This document shows, piece by piece, positions 1 through 9,963 of a DNA stretch of 10,141 nt. The DNA is taken from IMG/VR virus record IMGVR_UViG_2693429748_000016, one strand, 5' to 3'. The stretch comes from a virus (Duplodnaviria > Heunggongvirae > Uroviricota > Caudoviricetes). Under the pieces are notes generated by a model. The model made no database searches, was not told the DNA's origin, and saw only the letters and a program-made list of their open reading frames with translations. How positions within the stretch are numbered: position 1 is the stretch's first letter; every line of letters begins with the position of its first letter. The translations under genes and the position numbers were made by a program.

Positions 1-1
1 A

Positions 2-220
2 AGTCATCGGGCATTATCTGAACATAAAACACTACCAATAAGTTGGAGTCATTACCAAACGGTTGAAATGTATGCCGCTACTTACGGGTCCTGTAATCCT
101 CTGAATAAACCAGAGGGAAAAGATGATTTCGACAAAATTTACCGCTTCTTGGAGGACCGCTATATCAAAAGCTTAGAGGACGCAGGGATCAAATCCCCAG
201 TGAAGTCACCATTGTCCTGA
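2..220 (+). CDS. 3' end of an unidentified protein-coding gene (partial, continues beyond window start)
   Basis: Frame 2 is open from position 2 to TGA at 218-220 (72 codons without a stop). All three minus-strand frames across 1-188 contain stops. No motif recognised. Overlaps the 3' end of the convergent minus-strand gene by about 30 bp. Confidence 0.3.
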   Translation, partial: SHRALSEHKTLPISWSHYQTVEMYAATYGSCNPLNKPEGKDDFDKIYRFLEDRYIKSLEDAGIKSPVKSPLS

Positions 221-554
221 GAACTTGCAGAACGTCATGATCATAACTTCCATCCAAACCGCGACGGCGAATTGCTTCTCGTATTACCGGAAGCAGTTCG
301 CTGGAAATCTCGGTGCATATTTCACCTGATAATACGCTTGGCTCAAGTGAGAATATTGGTGAACTTACGGTCTTGGTCTCGACAGTTTCAGAGTCAGTGC
401 CAACATTATAAAGCTCAACGAAAGCGGTCTTGATTTTCCGGGCCAGATCTTTTGCTGGCTCGCTTGCAATATCTTTCCCGATTTCTCGCAGCACAGAATG
501 CAATGTATGAGCTGCTGTTTTCTGTACATCAGACGGTAAATCTTTAAATTCCAT
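189..554 (-). CDS. hypothetical protein (about 121 aa), acidic, helix-rich appearance
   Basis: ORF track 189..566 (-). The internal ATG at 554 is preceded by GAGG with a 6-nt spacer, so 554 is the preferred start; the ATG at 566 overlaps the stop of the upstream ORF (ATGA) and is the alternative. No recognisable family. Confidence 0.5.
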   Translation of the reverse strand: MEFKDLPSDVQKTAAHTLHSVLREIGKDIASEPAKDLARKIKTAFVELYNVGTDSETVETKTVSSPIFSLEPSVLSGEICTEISSELLPVIREAIRRRGLDGSYDHDVLQVLRTMVTSLGI

Positions 555-565
555 CGTCAGCCTCA

Positions 566-772
566 TCAGTCAGTGTTTCTGGCTAACCAGCAACGCGCGC
601 CAGATTCGGTTTTAAACGTTTTGCTTTTGGTATACGTCATGGCGGTAAACGTTCCATCCTGGTTAGGGAACACGCCGCACACCAGAGATTCGTTGTTGCC
701 AAGATCGATAGTATCCATGCTGACCTCATTTCCCCTTAACGCCGGGGTGGCGGAACAAAAAACCTGCTGCAT
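566..772 (-). CDS. hypothetical small protein (68 aa)
   Basis: ORF track 566..772 (-). Stop overlaps the downstream start candidate (ATGA arrangement), consistent with a leftward operon leaving the immunity region. Weak RBS. An overlapping plus-strand ORF (573..785) is the alternative reading. Confidence 0.35.
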   Translation of the reverse strand: MQQVFCSATPALRGNEVSMDTIDLGNNESLVCGVFPNQDGTFTAMTYTKSKTFKTESGARCWLARNTD

Positions 773-899
773 AGTTAAAGATTGAACCCTGCCGTCATGT
801 TCTTACGCCTCGGGCTGGCTACTTAACCCCTGACCACTGTCTGGTAACTCGAAGTATTGCCCTGCATTCTGTGGGGCGGGGTGGGTTGACGCCTGAAAC

Positions 900-941
900 A
901 ATAGCATCATTATTTTTTTTGATGTAAATAGCATCGCTATT
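900..941. promoter_or_regulatory. pair of operator-like palindromes (OL-like) downstream of the repressor/TA operon
   Basis: ATAGCATCATTAT at 901-913 and the perfect-armed palindrome AATAGC-ATC-GCTATT at 927-941 (arms ATAGC/GCTAT, 3-bp spacer). Centres are about 27 bp apart. The same 13-bp motif family recurs at 2039-2076. Confidence 0.4.
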
Positions 942-956
942 GTTTTTTGTTGGGGC

Positions 957-981
957 AAGAAAAAACCACCCTAAGGTGGTT
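957..981 (-). terminator. intrinsic terminator for the leftward repressor-antitoxin-toxin operon
   Basis: 7-bp stem AACCACC/GGTGGTT (964-970 and 975-981) with loop CTAA. On the minus-strand transcript the hairpin is followed by UUUUUCUUG (complement of the A-run at 957-963). Lies 17 bp beyond the parE stop at 998. Confidence 0.45.
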
Positions 982-997
982 CTGTCGGCGGGAATAA

Positions 998-1288
998 TTA
1001 ACTGTTTTTGCCTGGATACTGTCTTCGAGAATGCACAATATTTACTACTTCTATGCTTGATGCTGTTACTCGGTAAAGGATGATGTAGTTAGGATGAGTT
1101 ACAATTTCACGAAGACCAAGAACTCGCTCGCTTGGAGGATACAGGTAAGGATGCTCTGTGAGCGGCAAAACGGATGTTTCAATTCGAATTTTCATTCTGC
1201 GTGCTGCCGCGGGATTTTCTTTAGCTATGTAGGCTACGATCTGGCGCAAATCATCACGAGCAGATGGTAGCCATAAAACGGGTAACAT
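998..1288 (-). CDS. parE: ParE-family type II toxin (RelE/ParE superfamily), 96 aa
   Basis: Size and sequence are typical of ParE toxins (N-terminal MLPVLWLPSARDDL, C-terminal PNYIILYRV...VVNIVHSRRQYP). Start overlaps the stop of the upstream antitoxin gene (ATGA at 1288). From memory it resembles ParE2 of the E. coli paaR2-paaA2-parE2 module; not verified by alignment. Confidence 0.85.
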   Translation of the reverse strand: MLPVLWLPSARDDLRQIVAYIAKENPAAARRMKIRIETSVLPLTEHPYLYPPSERVLGLREIVTHPNYIILYRVTASSIEVVNIVHSRRQYPGKNS

Positions 1289-1482
1289 TATTCACCTCTG
1301 TGAGTTGCAGCAGCAATTTGGGCAATAATTTGTTCCATTTCCGCCATTACCTCATCATGCGGAATCGCCGGGCGGGGATCCGCGAGGCTTGCTGCTACTT
1401 TGGCCCGCAGCCATTCGTTGTAACTATTTTCTTGCTCAACTGTCTCAAATTCTGAAACCATTGGGGAAAGGACTGTACTCAT
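1288..1482 (-). CDS. paaA: small antitoxin, PaaA-like (64 aa), partner of ParE
   Basis: 64-aa acidic protein immediately upstream of and overlapping parE. GGAG lies 10 nt upstream of the ATG at 1482. Motif SPMVSEFETVEQENSYNEWLRAKVAASLADPRPAIPHDEV matches my recollection of PaaA2-type antitoxins. Gene context (regulator-antitoxin-ParE) supports the call. Confidence 0.75.
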   Translation of the reverse strand: MSTVLSPMVSEFETVEQENSYNEWLRAKVAASLADPRPAIPHDEVMAEMEQIIAQIAAATHRGE

Positions 1483-1501
1483 TTTACATATCTCCTCTGA
1501 T

Positions 1502-2002
1502 TTAGGCGCGACGGCCTTTTTGTGCAGCTAACCACCGCGCAACCGTACGATCCATTGATTCTTTTTTATCTTTCATCTCCTGAAGCATGTGTTCTTGATC
1601 TTCTTTCGGAAAAGCTCTGAACGTATGGATTAAATCTCGTTCCATCGGCTCTACGGCAAACGGTAGTTCATCCTCTGTTTGTTCTGTGTCTGCTGGTAAT
1701 GCGACTATGTTATCTTGCTGTGGTTCTCGACAATACATCCTTGCAATTTGCAGCAAATCTACCATGTCTGGCCTGATTGACTCAGGGGGAACTTTCAGTA
1801 AGCCAGCAAACTTTAGAACAGCCTCAAGGTTTAGTGGGGTTTGACCATTTAGGTAGTGACTTACCGCCCCTTGTGTTGAAAACCCCATAATTTCCGCCGC
1901 ACGTTCCTGAGTCAATCCCAACTGAGATTTCTTTGCCATCCAGATTTCTTTCAGTCTTCTGGCGGCGTTGAGGTCGGTGTCTGACAATGATTTTCTTTTC
2001 AT
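1502..2002 (-). CDS. CI-like HTH (XRE-family) repressor, PaaR-like; likely prophage immunity repressor
   Basis: ORF track 1502..2032 begins at a GTG; the first ATG (MKRKSLSDTDL..., at 2002) is the more plausible start. N-terminal HTH segment LTQERAAEIMGFSTQGAVSHYLNG. Transcribed divergently from the Cro-like gene across an operator-bearing intergenic region. First gene of the repressor-paaA-parE operon. No Ser/Lys S24 peptidase motif recognised in the C-terminal half. Confidence 0.75.
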   Translation of the reverse strand: MKRKSLSDTDLNAARRLKEIWMAKKSQLGLTQERAAEIMGFSTQGAVSHYLNGQTPLNLEAVLKFAGLLKVPPESIRPDMVDLLQIARMYCREPQQDNIVALPADTEQTEDELPFAVEPMERDLIHTFRAFPKEDQEHMLQEMKDKKESMDRTVARWLAAQKGRRA

Positions 2003-2037
2003 ACATCCAATTCTAATAAGATTGCTAATCACTTTGA

Positions 2038-2079
2038 AATAGCATCACTATTTACTTTTAAAAATAACAGTGCTATTAA
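2038..2079. promoter_or_regulatory. OR-like operator pair overlapping a candidate rightward early promoter
   Basis: AATAGCATCACTATT at 2038-2052 and ATAACAGTGCTAT at 2064-2076, same motif family as 901-941, centres about 25 bp apart. Candidate promoter TTTACT (2051-2056), 17-nt spacer, TATTAA (2074-2079), which would start transcription just upstream of the Cro-like gene. Confidence 0.45.
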
Positions 2080-2113
2080 TTATGCATTGGTAACACATCA
2101 CATAGGGCGGATT

Positions 2114-2377
2114 ATGAATCTTGGAGAATATTTGCATCATTTTCATATAACCCAGAGTTCATTTGCTGAGATTGTTGGCGCATCCCAAGGGATGGTCAGC
2201 CACGTTATAACGGGGCGTGCAAAACTTACAGGAGAAAAAATATTACGTTGGTGTGAAGCAACGGGATGGGTGGTGACCCCACATGAGATTGACAGTAAAA
2301 CCTACCCCAACCCAACTGACGGCTTGCCTGCTGAGTTTCAGGCTAACACACAACCATCGGCGGGGGTTGATTCATGA
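2114..2377 (+). CDS. Cro/YdaS-like HTH DNA-binding protein (87 aa from ATG 2114; 96 aa if started at 2087)
   Basis: HTH-like segment QSSFAEIVGASQGMVSHVITGRAKLTGEKILRW. First gene of the rightward operon, divergent from the repressor. Stop overlaps the next gene's start (ATGA at 2374-2377). Start choice between 2087 and 2114 is unresolved. Confidence 0.65.
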   Translation: MNLGEYLHHFHITQSSFAEIVGASQGMVSHVITGRAKLTGEKILRWCEATGWVVTPHEIDSKTYPNPTDGLPAEFQANTQPSAGVDS

Positions 2378-2799
2378 AAATCAAGCATGAACACATCCGC
2401 ATGGCGATGAAAGCCTGGGCGCATCCGGACGGTGAAAAAGTTCCGGCAGCTGAAATAACCAGGGTTTATTTCGAACTGGGAATGACGTTTCCGGTTCTGC
2501 ATAACGACAGCAAGCACAACACGCTTTATCTCAACACCCAAAAGATTTTCCGTTGGCTGGATAAAGACACCCCTGACGCTGTTGAAAAAATTCAGGCGTT
2601 GTTACCTGCGATCGAAAGGGCAATGCCACCTCCGCTGGTGGCTCGAATGCGCAGCCACAGTTCAGCTTATTTTCGGGAACTGGTGGAGACGCATGAACGA
2701 CTGGTGAGAGACGCTGATGATTTTGTCGCAGTGGCAATCGCCGGTTTCAATCAGATGAACCGTGGTGGCCCGGCAGGAAATGCTGTGGCAGTACATTGA
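2374..2799 (+). CDS. YdaT-like protein (141 aa), second gene of the rightward early operon
   Basis: Begins MKIKHEHIRMAMKAW. Position and size match the second gene of Rac-type ydaS-ydaT pairs. Family assignment is from gene order and recollection, not alignment. Confidence 0.6.
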   Translation: MKIKHEHIRMAMKAWAHPDGEKVPAAEITRVYFELGMTFPVLHNDSKHNTLYLNTQKIFRWLDKDTPDAVEKIQALLPAIERAMPPPLVARMRSHSSAYFRELVETHERLVRDADDFVAVAIAGFNQMNRGGPAGNAVAVH

Positions 2800-2870
2800 C
2801 TGACAATAGCCATATCGAATCGCTCCCGGCAACTCGTGAGTAAAAAGATTCGGTATCAGAAGAGGTGAGT

Positions 2871-3935
2871 ATGGCTAACGCCTGGCTCAGATTATGGCAT
2901 GACATGCCAAATGACCCTAAGTGGCGAACAATTGCCAGGGTGTCAGGGCAGCCAATTGCAACAGTGATGGCAGTGTATATCCACCTCCTGGTGAGCGCGT
3001 CACGAAATGTCACGCGAGGTCACATTGATGTCACGACAGAAGATTTGGCAAGTGCGCTCGACGTGACAGAAGAGGTAATTGATTCAATTTTGCAGACGAT
3101 GCAGGGGCGGGTACTTGATGGTGATTTAATCACTGGATGGGAAAAACGCCAGGTGCTTAAAGAGGACAACGGCAATATTTCGCAAACCGCAAAATCTCCT
3201 GCAGAGCGCAAGAGGGCGCAGCGAGAGAGGGAAAGAAAGCGGGAACAAAATGGCGATTGTCACGGCGCGTCACGAAATGTCACGCACATGTCACGACGAG
3301 TCACGACAGATACAGATAAAGATACAGATAAAGAAGATCAAAACACTATGGTCCATGGCGTAAAAAACGCCACGAACCAGGCAGGGGATGTTCAGACCGT
3401 CAATCCTGGTCAGCCAGCAGGCTCGACACCGGAAGCCGATTCAGCGTATGCGCTGAAAGCCGATTCGGGCGCTGTGCAGCAGGTGATGACCGCAAGGCCG
3501 GAGCAATCACTCCAACTGCAGCAGCCTGAAGCCGATTCCGCCATTCAGCGGGAAGCCGATCGGGTAGCCCCGGAAAACACCGGGCAGCCTGTGGGACGAG
3601 TGGATTATCCGGATGTGTTCGAACAGGTCTGGCGGGAATACCCGTTGCGTGCCGGGGCAAACCCGAAGAAATCCGCATTCAGTGCCTGGAAGGCCAGATT
3701 GCGCGAGGGGGTGCCACCAGAGACCATGCTGGATGGTGTGAGGCGTTACGCGAGATACCTGGCGGCGACCGGGAAAGCGGGAACGGAATTTGTTCAGCGA
3801 GCGACGACGTTTTTTGGGCCGGACCGGAATTTTGAAAACCCCTGGTTGCTCCCGGTAAGCGGCACGAACAACCAGCGTTGTGTGAATCATATTTCTGAAC
3901 CGGATACCGAAATTCCGCCGGGATTCAGGGGGTGA
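2871..3935 (+). CDS. phage replication initiator / replisome organiser (O-like, YdaU-like), about 354 aa
   Basis: ATG at 2871 with GAGG 5 nt upstream (ORF track begins at GTG 2865). C-terminal region (YPDVFEQVWREYPLRAGANPKKSAFSAWKARL...FENPW) resembles the conserved C-terminal domain of phage replication proteins. Lies immediately upstream of a DnaC-like loader. Carries internal iteron arrays. Confidence 0.85.
   Translation: MANAWLRLWHDMPNDPKWRTIARVSGQPIATVMAVYIHLLVSASRNVTRGHIDVTTEDLASALDVTEEVIDSILQTMQGRVLDGDLITGWEKRQVLKEDNGNISQTAKSPAERKRAQRERERKREQNGDCHGASRNVTHMSRRVTTDTDKDTDKEDQNTMVHGVKNATNQAGDVQTVNPGQPAGSTPEADSAYALKADSGAVQQVMTARPEQSLQLQQPEADSAIQREADRVAPENTGQPVGRVDYPDVFEQVWREYPLRAGANPKKSAFSAWKARLREGVPPETMLDGVRRYARYLAATGKAGTEFVQRATTFFGPDRNFENPWLLPVSGTNNQRCVNHISEPDTEIPPGFRG
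2995..3040. repeat. iteron block 1 (putative origin element) inside the replication gene
   Basis: TCACG copies at 3000, 3010 and 3031 (roughly 10-11 bp phasing). The 21-mer GCGCGTCACGAAATGTCACGC (2995-3015) recurs exactly at 3265-3285. Confidence 0.55.
3259..3334. repeat. iteron block 2 plus tandem 12-mer (putative origin core) inside the replication gene
   Basis: TCACG copies at 3260, 3270, 3280, 3291 and 3301 (spacing 10, 10, 11, 10 bp), followed by TACAGATAAAGA x2 (3311-3334) and an A-rich stretch. Resembles the lambda arrangement of an origin embedded in the O gene. Confidence 0.55.
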
Positions 3936-5450: not shown

Positions 5451-5816
5451 ATGGCAAAAGTATTTACACAGGAAGAGCGGGAAAAAATTAAGGGGCAGGT
5501 TGTTGAACTCGTACGCCAGAGTGGGCGCGAGACGTTACGACAACTGGAAGCTAAAACCGGGGCGACAAGATATTTAATAAGCGTTCTCGCCAGAGAGCTG
5601 GTTGCCAGTGGGGATGTATACAACTCTGGCTACGGGTTATTCCCGTCTGAACAGGCTCGTAAGGACTGGCAAAACGCCCGCAAAAAACTCTCGAGGGCAA
5701 AGCTGAAGAAACCATCTGTGGTTGATCCGGACCTTATCTGGTCATTACCAGACGGAGAAATACGCCGCTACGAAGTACCGGCTTTCTATCAGGGTGATTT
5801 TCAGGAACCGTTCTGA
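5451..5816 (+). CDS. hypothetical phage protein (about 121 aa); 3' end fused to an IS-derived segment
   Basis: ATG at 5451 (ORF track begins at TTG 5436). A diverged second copy of most of this gene lies at 5930-6319. The last codons (..QEPF stop) fall within the sequence attributed to the IS remnant. Confidence 0.55.
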   Translation: MAKVFTQEEREKIKGQVVELVRQSGRETLRQLEAKTGATRYLISVLARELVASGDVYNSGYGLFPSEQARKDWQNARKKLSRAKLKKPSVVDPDLIWSLPDGEIRRYEVPAFYQGDFQEPF

Positions 5817-5929
5817 CAGCTTCGGCTTTGAACTCTTTAGAGTAACGTTGGGTTTTTCTGCTCATTATTAGCTCCTTCTGATGCCATTCTATTTCAGGAA
5901 GGAGTGTCCGTTAAACTCAGGCTACCTCA
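5806..5929 (-). mobile_element. remnant of an IS3-family insertion sequence (left end plus first ~20 codons of orfA), IS600-like
   Basis: The minus strand reads TGAGGTAGCC... from 5929 (typical IS3-family terminus), then AAGGAGCTAATA-ATG and MSRKTQRYSKEFKAEAVRTV (ATG at 5865). I recall this as the IS600-type OrfA N-terminus; unverified. The element breaks off after about 20 codons. Confidence 0.5.
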
Positions 5930-6319
5930 AAAATTAAAGGGCAGGTTGTTGAACTTGTACGTCTGAGCGGTCGCGAGACGTTGCGGCAACTGGAAGCCAA
6001 GACAGGTGCGACAAGATATCTGATGAGTGTTCTCGCCAGAGAGCTGGTTGCCAGTGGCGATGTATACAACTCTGGTTACGGGTTATTCCCGTCTGAACAG
6101 GCGCGTAAGGACTGGCAAAACGCCCGCAAAAAACTCTCAAGGGCAAATCTGAAGAAACCATCTGTGGTTGATCCTGACCTTATCTGGTCATTACCAGACG
6201 GAGAAATACGCCGCTACGACAGGCGTCAAAACATAATCTGTAGCGAGTGCCGGAAGAGTGAAGTTATGCAGCGTGTACCGGCTTTCTATCAGGGTGATTT
6301 TCAGGAGGCGGTACTGTGA
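5930..6319 (+). pseudogene. N-terminally truncated, diverged second copy of the 5451..5816 gene
   Basis: 5930-6230 aligns with 5483-5790 at roughly 93% identity by eye. Homology begins exactly at the IS terminus, so the copy lacks about the first 10 codons and its start. ORF track 5981..6319 starts at an internal ATG. Carries an extra 56-bp segment near the 3' end relative to copy A. Confidence 0.5.
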
Positions 6320-6440
6320 GTGAAATTAGCTATCAAATAATCTGTCGCGAGTGCCGGAAGAGCGAAGCTATGCAGCGTGTACTGGCTTTCTATCAGGGTA
6401 ATTTTCAGGAGGCGATACTGTGAATGAAATTAGCTATCAG
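6233..6440. repeat. 104-bp tandem direct repeat (2 units, about 92% identical)
   Basis: Unit 1 is 6233-6336 and unit 2 is 6337-6440, with 8 mismatches out of 104. Each unit contains the gene 3' end (..CxECRKSExMQRVxAFYQGxFQEAxL), a TGA stop, and an abutting start codon (GTG in unit 1, ATG in unit 2). Confidence 0.75.
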
Positions 6441-7051: not shown

Positions 7052-8884
7052 ATGGCCCGCATGTTTGATACATTAGGATTTTACATTATGAATGTGCAAC
7101 ATTTTGATTTTTTTACAGATAATGAGTTTTCTAATCTGGAAAGATATCAAACTTGTAAAGCCATGGCCAAAGGTTATGCGGGCAATTACAAAACCGGGCA
7201 GTCAAGGTTGATGCATGCCCGCTCATACTGCTTCAGCATCGTAGCTGCATATTGGGATACCCTTGCAAAAAAGCAAAAAAGCAGCATTAAAATGAGGGCA
7301 GTACCGCACACTGTTTACATAGAAGACATTCCATGTGATGCACGCGAGCTCGCTGAACGAACAGGTGAGCTTATTGCTCAATTTCCGGCGGAGGACGCTG
7401 GATATCTGATTGGGTCAATTTATACGGTAATGCTGCCATCCGCTTACCGTTCGGAATTGGGGGCTTACTATACCCCCCCACCTTTGGTAGCGCGTCTCTT
7501 GGACCTGGCTGAAAAGTCTGGTGTTGATTTTTCTCATGCATCGGTTATTGATCCTGCGTGTGGTGGCGGTGCATTTTTGGCACCAGTAGCCATTCGAATG
7601 TTAAAAAAAGACAAGGGGTCTTCCCCTGAATGGATGTTGAGGAGAATCAGTCGTCGTTTAAAGGGGATAGAAATCGATCCATTTGCGGCTTGGATGAGTT
7701 TGGTATTGCTCGAATCTGTACTAATGCCACTATGTGTAAAGGTAAAACGTAGATTGCCTGAAGATACAATTATTGTTGCTGATGCGCTTCAGCAAGATAA
7801 ATTTTCTGGTTATGATCTTGTGGTAGGGAATCCGCCTTACGGACGTGTCACTCTCGATATTAAAACGAGAGAAAAATATTCTCGTTCGTTATTTGGTCAT
7901 GCAAATCTATATGGATTGTTCACCGACTTAGCTGTTCGCATGGTTAAAGAGAAAACAGGAGTTATTGCATTTCTTACGCCAACTTCTTTTCTTGGTGGGC
8001 AGTATTTCACCGCGCTGCGAACCCTTTTGACCGAAAAAACTACTCCGTATGCCCTTGATTTCGTCACTGACAGGGATGGGGTCTTTGACGATGTTCTCCA
8101 GGAAACAATGTTGACAGCATTCAAGGCGGGAGAACATAAAGTTCGGGCCCAGGTATCCTCACTTGTCCCTAAGGGGTTGAACAAAGCAAAAATTGAGAAA
8201 ATAGGTAATGTTGATATAGAAAAAGGTGGAGCAACGTGGCTTTTGCCACGCGTTAAAGATGATGCCTGTTTTCTTAATGTATTAAAACAGATGTCTACGC
8301 GTTTAGCTGATCTGGGATACTCAGTCTCTACAGGTCAGTTAGTCTGGAATCGATTTAAGTCGCAGTTGCGTACGACGAAAGGAAAAAATAGCTACCCATT
8401 AGTCTGGGCGGAATCAATAACTTCAGCTGGTTTTCGTTTTAGTGCAGACAGAAAAAATCATGTTCCCTATATCGATATAACCCCACAACAGGGTTTCCTT
8501 GTGACAAAATCTGAATGTGTGCTTGTTCAGCGGACAACATCGAAGGAACAGGACAGAAGGATTTTAGCGGCAATTTTACCTCAGGGATTTATAGATGAAA
8601 CTGGTGGCGTAGTAGTTGAAAACCATATTAATATTGTATATTCAAACGGATTGTTCTCTGCGGTTCGCCCTGATGTTATTGATATGCTACTTAATTCGCA
8701 TGTTGTCGATCGGGCGTTCAGGTGTATAAGCGGAAGTGTTGCTGTTTCGGCCTATGAATTGAATTCAATCCCGTTGCCTTCTCTGGAGCAGGTGATGGAG
8801 ATTCAATCGTTAATTGATGCTGGCGTCCACAGACGGATTATTGAGAGAACTATCGCTGGTTTCTATGGAGTGATGATTGCATGA
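7052..8884 (+). CDS. gamma-class N6-adenine DNA methyltransferase (Eco57I/TaqI-like), 610 aa
   Basis: Motifs in gamma-class order: YYTPPPLV (about 7466-7489), SAM-binding VIDPACGGGAFL (about 7544-7579), catalytic VVGNPPYG (about 7819-7842), with a long C-terminal region consistent with a target-recognition domain. Alternative starts at 7061 and 7088. Visibly lower GC than the phage replication genes. Confidence 0.88.
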   Translation: MARMFDTLGFYIMNVQHFDFFTDNEFSNLERYQTCKAMAKGYAGNYKTGQSRLMHARSYCFSIVAAYWDTLAKKQKSSIKMRAVPHTVYIEDIPCDARELAERTGELIAQFPAEDAGYLIGSIYTVMLPSAYRSELGAYYTPPPLVARLLDLAEKSGVDFSHASVIDPACGGGAFLAPVAIRMLKKDKGSSPEWMLRRISRRLKGIEIDPFAAWMSLVLLESVLMPLCVKVKRRLPEDTIIVADALQQDKFSGYDLVVGNPPYGRVTLDIKTREKYSRSLFGHANLYGLFTDLAVRMVKEKTGVIAFLTPTSFLGGQYFTALRTLLTEKTTPYALDFVTDRDGVFDDVLQETMLTAFKAGEHKVRAQVSSLVPKGLNKAKIEKIGNVDIEKGGATWLLPRVKDDACFLNVLKQMSTRLADLGYSVSTGQLVWNRFKSQLRTTKGKNSYPLVWAESITSAGFRFSADRKNHVPYIDITPQQGFLVTKSECVLVQRTTSKEQDRRILAAILPQGFIDETGGVVVENHINIVYSNGLFSAVRPDVIDMLLNSHVVDRAFRCISGSVAVSAYELNSIPLPSLEQVMEIQSLIDAGVHRRIIERTIAGFYGVMIA

Positions 8885-9963
8885 ATCTGCCTGTTGTTCC
8901 CCCATTGAATGTTATCCGGGAAAGATTACAATTAATTTTCCCTGAAGGGACTGAGAATCGTGGATATTTAATTCGGGAAATAGCTGCAAAAACAATTTTT
9001 GTCATGTTTTATGCTGGTGCGGTTGAGGGGCTGGGGCGATGGATAAGGCCCAGCCAGGTTGTAAGTATGGGAGATTCGCAGGCTGCTCTTACTGATGATG
9101 CGTCCAGAGAAAGCTGGGTAAAGATGACTTTCTCTAAACAAAAGATAAGGCCTGCTGATGCATGGTATGCGGAAAATACGCGTGAGCCAATACGTGATGA
9201 AACTATAAAAAATGGCCTAATACCTTGCAATGCAATTGTTGAGCGTAAAGGTATACCCACCACATCCTCTCGTCCTCGTTACAGTTTGAATCGCTCTTTT
9301 GCAGCACTCTTTGATGCCGGGCTTGAAGGAGATTCGCTGCTGAGTGCAATAAGTTCCTGGCAAGAAAATCATTTGAACAAAGCCGCTCTTGCTAGGTTGC
9401 GTTTATTGAAATCAGGGGCAGTGATTGCTGCTGATGCCGTAGTCGTCACTTTCCCAAATGGAGAGAAGAGAACTTTAGCTCCGGGCCCGTCAAGTACAAT
9501 AGCTAAGGCCGTCATCGAAGTTTTTGCTCCTAATTTTCTTAAGAATCCAACTGTGCTCTGGTTGTCTGAATCCGGGAATAAAGTTGTTGCTCAGGATGAT
9601 GTATTGGCAAAAGCATTGGGGCTGAATATTGATGCCTCAAAAGCACTTCCAGATATTATTTTGATTGATTTGGGAGAGGACCGAACGGGTTCGGACATGC
9701 TTGTAGTTTTCACTGAAGTAGTTGCGACAGATGGGCCTATAAACAGGGAACGAAAAGTTACTCTCACTCATTTGGCTATTGACGCTGGGTTCAGCGAGAA
9801 AAATCTTGCATTCCTTACGGCATTTATGGACAGAAGTGCTCTGCCTTTTAAAAAGGCAATACCAGAATTGGCGTGGGGATCTTATGCATGGTTTGCTTCT
9901 GAACCGGAGCACTTAATTGATCTTCGGGATGGTTATCCGGTAAAGATCAGCCAGAGAAAATGA
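8881..9963 (+). CDS. putative type II restriction endonuclease (possibly BsuBI/PstI family), 360 aa
   Basis: Start overlaps the methyltransferase stop (ATGA at 8881-8884), with GGAG upstream. Same AT-rich composition. Size and M-then-R gene order match BsuBI-type systems as I remember them. No nuclease motif confidently identified by eye. Confidence 0.6.
   Translation: MNLPVVPPLNVIRERLQLIFPEGTENRGYLIREIAAKTIFVMFYAGAVEGLGRWIRPSQVVSMGDSQAALTDDASRESWVKMTFSKQKIRPADAWYAENTREPIRDETIKNGLIPCNAIVERKGIPTTSSRPRYSLNRSFAALFDAGLEGDSLLSAISSWQENHLNKAALARLRLLKSGAVIAADAVVVTFPNGEKRTLAPGPSSTIAKAVIEVFAPNFLKNPTVLWLSESGNKVVAQDDVLAKALGLNIDASKALPDIILIDLGEDRTGSDMLVVFTEVVATDGPINRERKVTLTHLAIDAGFSEKNLAFLTAFMDRSALPFKKAIPELAWGSYAWFASEPEHLIDLRDGYPVKISQRK

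Follow-up and report, generated by a model that had tools for sequence, protein, structure and literature searches.

The stretch of DNA examined here, referred to as the window, comprises 10,141 nt of the virus record IMGVR_UViG_2693429748_000016 (Caudoviricetes) and carries short inverted repeats in two pairs, 1.1 kb apart, on either side of a leftward operon made up of a repressor gene and the toxin-antitoxin (TA) genes paaA and parE. The question raised by this arrangement is whether the repeats are the left and right operators (OL and OR) of a prophage immunity switch, as was proposed in an earlier note on this DNA on the basis of a shared 13-bp dyad, ATAGC-N3-GCTAT. The analysis makes it highly probable that the dyads represent OL1/OL2 and OR1/OR2/OR3 of a lambdoid prophage switch, a type whose working is well understood and by which the prophage would be kept silent; they would be bound by the CI-like repressor encoded between them, and the predicted Cro-like protein very likely binds the same sites too.

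All four dyads were present at the positions given in the earlier note, with spacings of 27 and 25 bp between the centres of the left and right pairs, respectively:

901-913, 13-bp dyad, ATAGCATCATTAT, right arm with two mismatches
928-940, 13-bp dyad, ATAGCATCGCTAT, perfect palindrome, the only perfect one of the four
2039-2051, 13-bp dyad, ATAGCATCACTAT, one mismatch
2064-2076, 13-bp dyad, ATAACAGTGCTAT, one mismatch

Although the 13-bp dyad was shared by all four places, it is not the full site. Each copy extends to 15 bp, AATAGC-N3-GCTATT, and to 17 bp when the flanking A/T is included, giving a full site of 15-17 bp.

The possibility that the four sites are chance likenesses in AT-rich intergenic DNA draws on the behaviour of the shorter pattern: with up to two mismatches the 13-bp pattern alone showed no significant enrichment over chance, matching 6 times against 3.2 expected, and 6 or more matches occurred in 22 of 200 shuffles. 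The extended motif, in contrast, was enriched and clustered, having 3 matches at one mismatch or less (0.024 expected) and 5 at two or less (0.38 expected), enrichment figures that are optimistic since the 15-bp consensus was chosen with the sites already known. Two adjacent pairs at 20-30 bp spacing occurred in none of 3000 first-order Markov simulations, and an unbiased repeat search of nt 700-2200 ranked the four copies as the top direct-repeat family. With the positions conserved over four genera and the dyad missing from negative controls (see below), the probability of a chance origin is close to negligible. An extra match at 6358-6372, AAGAGCGAAGCTATG, was treated as fortuitous; its otherwise invariant T3 is broken and it lies within a tandem duplication.

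Putative operators and promoter register in related loci

The comparison set consisted of 8 non-redundant loci with repressor N-terminal domains that were ~50-100% identical. Loci considered were Escherichia coli (E. coli) variants with 75-78% repressor identity (L008-L012), Citrobacter braakii (L001), Salmonella diarizonae (L013 and L014), Providencia (L003-L005), and metagenomic contigs encoding 244-aa repressors (L015 and L016). A scan of genome contigs returned 7 loci, of which 5 were usable, L006 and L007 being unrelated helix-turn-helix (HTH) proteins; the Uliginosibacterium locus (L002) had a single site and no clear architecture. Matches to the dyad with two mismatches or less were nearly confined to the repressor/cro intergenic region and to a pair beyond the repressor operon, and these pairs were kept in the 8 loci although spacers, flanks and cargo differ. 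The expectation that the dyads recur at equivalent positions in related prophages was therefore borne out at both OR and OL.

The features assigned to the right cluster, including the rightward promoter PR and the repressor promoter PRM, were as follows:

2063-2077, putative OR1, AATAACAGTGCTATT, one mismatch; overlaps the PR -10 and is conserved in relatives
2038-2052, putative OR2, AATAGCATCACTATT, one mismatch; shares 2 nt with the PR -35 and adjoins the PRM -35
2015-2029, putative OR3, AATAAGATTGCTAAT, weak, three mismatches; lies within the PRM spacer and touches the PRM -10
2051-2056, plus strand, predicted PR -35, TTTACT; register kept in 8 loci
2074-2079, plus strand, predicted PR -10, TATTAA; shares 4 nt with OR1
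2033-2038, minus strand, predicted PRM -35, TTCAAA; adjoins OR2
2010-2015, minus strand, predicted PRM -10, TAGAAT; 7 nt ahead of the repressor ATG

The centres of the OR sites are 23 bp (OR3-OR2) and 25 bp (OR2-OR1) apart, and the layout was the same in every locus, that is, OR1, 10 bp, OR2, 8 bp, OR3, ~14 bp and the ATG, with OR3 in the relatives taking the form ATTAG(C/T)AA..(C/A)TATT. Thus, a pair is found at each end as had been claimed, but OR consists of three sites, of which OR3 had been overlooked. The promoter suggested in the earlier note to overlap the right pair, with TTTACT (2051-2056), a 17-nt spacer and TATTAA (2074-2079), was recovered exactly as given and corresponds to PR, since its register was fixed and its 17-nt spacer kept in 8 of 8 loci. 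Across these loci the -35 hexamer was TT(T/G)AC(T/A), for example TTGACT in Salmonella (L013) and TTTACA in Citrobacter, and the -10 hexamer was TATTAA or TAATAT.

PRM, TTCAAA-17-TAGAAT at 2038-2010, was detected by a consensus promoter scan. Its -10 hexamer (TAGAAT, TAAAAT or TAAACT) was located 6-7 nt before the conserved repressor ATG in all 8 loci; because this leaves no space for a Shine-Dalgarno sequence, a repressor mRNA transcribed from PRM would be leaderless. The centre of OR2 lies ~42-43 bp upstream of the predicted PRM start. Counting of 64 strong half-sites gave A1 64, A2 55, T3 64, A4 64, G5 44 and C6 53, with the central triplet of the dyad varying freely, a pattern that would be expected of a dimeric HTH protein reading two half-sites.

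On the left, the following features were assigned, including the leftward promoter PL:

900-914, putative OL1, AATAGCATCATTATT, two mismatches to the 15-bp consensus; overlaps the PL -10, equivalent site in 8 loci
927-941, putative OL2, AATAGCATCGCTATT, perfect dyad; its final 2 nt also begin the PL -35
923-928, minus strand, predicted PL -35, TTTACA, read from the sequence
898-903, minus strand, predicted PL -10, TATTGT; 19-nt spacer here
955-984, minus strand, predicted intrinsic terminator, 9-bp stem followed by a U-run; ends the repressor-paaA-parE operon

PL appeared to be built on OL2/OL1 in the same way as PR on OR2/OR1, and its register was fixed in the 8 loci. In the same register, relatives had TTGACA (Citrobacter and Providencia), TTGACT or TTGACC as the -35 hexamer, and TATTGT or TAATAT was found at -10 across the loci. 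The OL pair sits past the end of the cargo, 0.9-3.0 kb from OR, and no third OL site was found near 870-890 or 945-965 at three mismatches or less. The T-run between OL1 and OL2 (913-920) is T8 in the window, resulting in a 19-nt PL spacer and a 27-bp site spacing, versus T6 and a 17-nt spacer in E. coli RMDEC465 (99% identical over 700-2400) and FDAARGOS_944 (98% over 850-1000) and a spacer of 16-18 nt in all 7 relatives. Eight Ts might represent a genuine allele (attenuating, or produced by slippage) or an error of sequencing; more speculatively, slippage of this homopolymer between T6 and T8 might adjust or switch the expression of early-left (kil/dicB) genes.

An alternative suggested by the left side is that only the right cluster is functional, the left pair being decayed or purely architectural, with PL inactive owing to its 19-nt spacer and the pair serving at most as a looping anchor. 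The T8 run in place of the T6 of the two close E. coli copies, a spacer of 19 nt instead of 16-18 nt, the two mismatches in OL1, and decay elsewhere in the prophage (an insertion sequence [IS] fragment and a DUF977 gene that is duplicated and disrupted) would agree with such a state. However, A1, T3 and A4 are intact in both half-site cores of OL1 and OL2, the T8 could be a homopolymer sequencing error, and promoters with 19-nt spacers can keep some activity. A decayed or merely architectural left pair is regarded as unlikely.

It had also been left open in the earlier note that the left pair, lying next to T-runs, functions as a transcription terminator or RNA hairpin and not as an operator. 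On the plus strand, 927-941 could fold into a 6-bp hairpin with GTTTTTT after it, and 895-950 folds better than shuffled sequences on both strands (-13.3 and -11.0 kcal/mol; z ~-3.1 and -3.8, respectively), but such folding is a trivial result of two palindromes. The dyad stems contain at most two G-C pairs, a terminator scan made no call there, no plus-strand gene ends upstream of the pair, and leftward transcripts would have no U-run after either site; moreover, the same dyad occurs at OR, where a terminator is unexpected. The T-runs correspond on the other strand to the A-rich PL spacer and upstream tract, and the spacer sequence varies in relatives. A strong terminator for leftward transcripts, overlooked earlier, is already present at ~955-984: its hairpin (962-983, with a U-run to ~955) had a folding energy of -15.1 kcal/mol and a z-score of -3.2, and was conserved in three of the E. 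coli variants (L008, L009 and L011), with a different hairpin and T-run at the same place in L003 of Providencia. This hairpin, and not the dyads, would account for leftward termination. A terminator function of the left pair was hence rejected as very improbable. No RNA family was found over the dyads in an Rfam scan of nt 1-3000 at E <= 1, the sole match being a sub-threshold antisense one in paaA/parE (17 bits versus a gathering score of 40).

The sequences bordering the left pair on the outside are inverted as well (895-946; GAAACAATAGC ... GCTATTGTTTT), such that the OL region forms one large imperfect palindrome, able to form a long hairpin on either strand. This symmetry probably follows from the presence of the PL -10 (TATTGT) and of the A-tract upstream.

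Repressor module, heteroimmune prophages and cargo

The two regulatory genes diverge around a short control region, and both products possess an HTH_3 domain:

1502-2002, minus strand, CI-like repressor, 166 aa, ATG at 2002
2114-2377, plus strand, Cro-like HTH protein, 87 aa, ATG at 2114, HTH_3

Residues 2-81 of the repressor matched the N-terminal domain of lambda CI (phmmer, PDB 1lmb, E = 2.9e-9), in addition to a Pfam HTH_3 match (E = 8e-9). The 1lmb match takes in the basic N-terminal arm and aligns acidic residues with lambda E34 and D38, which form the positive-control patch. Residues 123-166 shared 52% identity with the C-terminus of PaaR2, and a Pfam scan of the 166-aa protein gave no match to a Peptidase_S24 domain. 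A start at GTG 2032, giving a 176-aa open reading frame, was rejected, as all homologues begin at the methionine of MKRKSLS, that is, ATG 2002.

The N-terminal 95 residues define the repressor family, with a recognition helix (...TQGAVSHYLNG...) that is nearly invariant, and the Cro-like type co-occurred with this domain and with the AATAGC dyads. None of the sequenced phages encoded a repressor more than 60% identical. The same set of N-terminal domain, Cro and operators was found in prophages of Providencia and in the Stx2a phage Lyz12581Vzw, joined there to an S24 domain. The domain also occurred in two-HTH repressors of 240-255 aa (L015, 3501-4235; L016; L001, 4001-4723; P0013-P0023), in which the lambda-type HTH is followed by the HTH of the 132-aa PaaR-like proteins and then by a PaaR2-type tail, and the loci encoding them carry AATAGC dyads at OR and OL. 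Because the dyads persist with S24, PaaR2-type or extra-HTH back-ends, the operators follow the repressor N-terminal domain, not the C-terminal back-end. In the Providencia and Stx2a phage repressors the helix has Q versus H in the window, the corresponding Cro residue changes from H to Q (Providencia) or G (Stx2a phage), and the operators are richer in ATTAGC half-sites. A specific covariation between helix residue and operator base is not claimed, ATTAGC being found also in OR3 of H-type loci.

Four prophages with the same ydfA leader and YdaT and with other repressors served as controls: a LexA-type repressor (L019), one of 139 aa (L020), a 132-aa PaaR-like protein (L021), and the true PaaR2 (MQKKE...) of phage Evi (L017). 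The AATAGC dyad was absent from all four, and in each a different dyad of its own stood at OL as well as at OR; in the PaaR2 locus, ACTAAAC/GTTTAGT repeats were present in place of the AATAGC dyad. The dyad thus tracks the DNA-binding module and not the flanks or cargo. Operators co-varied with the repressor N-terminal domain and Cro type, as expected for heteroimmune prophages. Conserved positions, a fixed promoter register and the heteroimmune controls thus lend support to the OL/OR-like organisation that had been proposed.

The contents of the slot between the repressor gene and OL differed between hosts: E. coli had PaaA2-ParE, Salmonella diarizonae had HigB-HigA, and the metagenomic contigs encoded a HipA_2-like kinase together with DUF3037. 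This bears on another explanation, in which the dyads are autoregulatory operators of the PaaA2-ParE complex, as in classical type II TA modules. Classical antitoxins bind palindromes within their own promoters, and the dyads do flank the TA operon. On the other hand, PaaA2 here matched only a short model (PF21217), the dyads were kept where the cargo is HigB-HigA or HipA-like, and they were absent from L017 and L021, which have homologous PaaA2-ParE and a different repressor. Since the dyads are independent of cargo identity, autoregulation by the TA complex was rejected, its probability being very small.

Predicted working of the switch

With the dyads read as OL and OR, a switch may be outlined as follows. 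Repressor dimers would recognise the AATAGC half-sites of the 15-17-bp dyads via the lambda-CI-type HTH. OR1 and OR2 together cover the -10 and -35 of PR, and their occupancy would silence the cro-like gene, ydaT and the replication genes, with the repressor at OR2, adjoining the PRM -35, placed so that it could activate PRM. Transcription from PRM presumably begins at the repressor ATG or beside it, so that the mRNA of the repressor-paaA-parE operon would be leaderless, and the weak OR3 within PRM would allow negative autoregulation at high repressor concentration. On the left, OL2 and OL1 cover the -35 and -10 of PL, a promoter predicted to drive ydfA and downstream kil/dicB-type genes; their occupancy would repress it. 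The Cro-like protein would most likely bind these sites too, with the order of preference reversed.

Higher-order oligomerisation is probably the role of the PaaR2-like C-terminal domain, and would permit cooperative binding of adjacent dimers and OL-OR looping across 1.1 kb. A further suggestion, possible but offered tentatively, is that the module is portable and that, in the window, the placing of its lambda-type domain on a non-cleavable PaaR2-type tail might create an SOS-independent bistable switch with OL-OR looping through an oligomerisation fold unrelated to that of CI.

Several points weigh against the reading of the dyads as a complete OL/OR system. OR3 is weak, with three mismatches, and its role was assigned from position and conservation; OL has two sites versus three in lambda. 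The consensus promoter scan called neither PR nor PL, the -10 hexamers of which match at 4 of 6 positions, and PL, whose 19-nt spacer exceeds the normal 16-18 nt, may be weak or dead in the window. The case for oligomerisation and looping is an extrapolation from PaaR2 over an alignment of 44 residues. Among the closely related E. coli loci, part of the conservation reflects common descent; the weight of the conservation argument is carried mainly by the loci of Citrobacter, Salmonella and Providencia together with the negative controls. For this repressor and its sites, operator binding and transcription are deduced from sequence, and the same applies to promoter activity, start sites, PRM activation, looping and competition by Cro.

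Cassette limits, neighbouring genes and known immunity systems

The genes surrounding the operators, apart from the two regulatory genes, were as follows:

566-772, minus strand, ydfA-like DUF1391 gene, first gene of the leftward PL operon
998-1288, minus strand, ParE-family toxin gene (PF05016, E = 1.8e-17), cargo
1288-1482, minus strand, PaaA2-family antitoxin gene (PF21217, E = 3e-23), cargo
2374-2799, plus strand, YdaT, overlapping the end of the cro-like gene

The repressor, paaA and parE genes follow each other directly or overlap (1502/1482 and 1288/1288), and the one terminator is located after parE. Downstream of ydaT on the plus strand are O-like and DnaC-like replication genes. A perfect YdaT site, TTGATT-N6-AATCAA, was located at 2367-2384, TTGATTCATGAAAATCAA, spanning the stop codon of the cro-like gene and the start codon of ydaT; in prophage CP-933P this sequence is the high-affinity site of YdaT, at an equivalent position (OM / PRE-like promoter; PMC9986795). 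The E. coli copy of the region, which is 99% identical, belongs to a complete lambdoid prophage beside a tRNA-Ser gene, a prophage that has int, exo, dicB, ydfABC and a Q-like antiterminator.

Nucleotides 850-888 were matched at 99% or more by over 1300 E. coli genomes. Because homology ends at 888, beside OL1, and resumes on the right at ~2368, the predicted immunity-specific cassette is delimited to ~889-2367, comprising OL, the terminator, cargo, repressor, OR and cro; this layout is that of a classical lambdoid immunity region. Of 5426 complete E. coli genomes, 72 matched the module across 80% or more of its length and 70 matched a variant with 78% repressor identity; the immunity type was also found in Shigella, Citrobacter, Salmonella and Providencia.

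Outside the cassette, the leader at ~773-888, from the predicted PL start to ydfA, was kept across prophages of different immunity types; the whole leader (773-888) aligned in the four heteroimmune prophages and matched no Rfam family. Nucleotides 7052-9963 encode a type II restriction-modification pair inside the prophage, in which the gene for an Eco57I/N6_Mtase-type methyltransferase (610 aa) overlaps that for a BsuBI/PstI-family endonuclease (360 aa); the cI gene of the Stx2a phage is likewise followed by a methyltransferase and a BsuBI-type endonuclease. Signs of prophage decay were observed at 5483-6439, including a 291-bp direct duplication (5483-5773 and 5929-6219, 92% identity) by which a DUF977 gene is broken up into two partial copies, a short N-terminal fragment of an IS3-type transposase on the minus strand (5734-5865), and a tandem 103-bp duplication (6233-6439).

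Among known systems, lambda shares with the window a divergent repressor/cro pair around a tripartite OR with sites ~23-25 bp apart, OR1/OR2 over PR, OR2 adjoining the PRM -35 and OR3 inside PRM, a leaderless repressor mRNA from PRM (predicted here), 17-bp sites when the flanking A/T is included, a second operator cluster over PL past a cargo operon placed like rexAB, and a homologous repressor N-terminal domain. The lambda operator half-site is of the TATCAC type, whereas that of the window is AATAGC and its OL has two sites, not three. Unlike CI, the window repressor has no S24/LexA-like autocleavage domain, possessing instead a C-terminus of ~45 aa of PaaR2 type; YdaT takes the role of CII, and no N/nut system was evident in the window.

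In architecture and logic the window is closer still to the immunity region of CP-933P (Sp12) of E. coli O157:H7 (Jurenas et al. 2021, PMC8630535; Prolic-Kalinsek et al. 2023, PMC9986795), which has the same gene order, with repressor-paaA-parE leftward and cro-like gene and ydaT rightward, and the same ydfA-type PL leader. Other shared features are the YdaT OM site at the end of the cro-like gene, a YdaT with 87% identity to the protein of phage Evi, which carries PaaR2, and the repressor C-terminus (52% identity). In CP-933P, binding of PaaR2 and YdaS to OR has been shown by electrophoretic mobility shift assay and DNase footprints, reporters of PR, PRM and PL were repressed, paaR2 mRNA is leaderless, as for lambda cI, and PaaR2 forms octamers in solution (PMC8630535). 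However, the DNA-binding domain of the window repressor is unrelated in sequence to that of PaaR2, only the last 44 residues aligning, its Cro-like protein has no detectable similarity to the CP-933P-type YdaS, and the operators there are GTTTAGTAA-type repeats versus AATAGC-N3-GCTATT in the window. Since the DNA-binding domain, Cro and operators differ, the two are considered heteroimmune. Identity with PaaR1 or PaaR2 of O157:H7 was likewise rejected, as similarity to those genomes was confined to the repressor C-terminus and the TA genes.

The Stx2a phage Lyz12581Vzw (Oslovirus) encodes a repressor N-terminal domain 52% identical over residues 2-90 and a Cro of the same family, and it shares with the Providencia prophages an OR operator of the type A(A/T)TAGC-N3-GCTA(A/T)T; in contrast to the window, these have a Peptidase_S24 C-terminus, making them presumably SOS-inducible, different cargo, and ...VSQ... 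in place of ...VSH... in the recognition helix. Rac of E. coli K-12 (RacR-YdaS-YdaT) resembles the window in its YdaT-family CII analogue, ydfA/ydaF-type early-left operon and divergent repressor and cro-like pair. Only ~95 bp of the cro-like region aligned to a Rac-type element, phage Rac-SA53 (77%), and RacR was not among the repressor homologues at E <= 1e-5, no direct comparison of RacR with the repressor having been made.

The literature searched contained no description of this particular repressor, Cro and operator sequence, and no paper with the exact operator strings was found. The architecture and logic are already known from lambda and CP-933P, so that the switch is not conceptually new; what appears to be new is its heteroimmune specificity. 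The operator sequence AATAGC-N3-GCTATT and the limits ~889-2367 are defined for an immunity type not found described. The repressor is a natural chimera of a lambda-type DNA-binding domain on a PaaR2-type tail, which extends the paradigm of CP-933P and lambda, and the slot between repressor and OL holds interchangeable TA cargo under predicted PRM control. In practical terms, these sequences may be used for predicting superinfection immunity groups and prophages that would repress one another.

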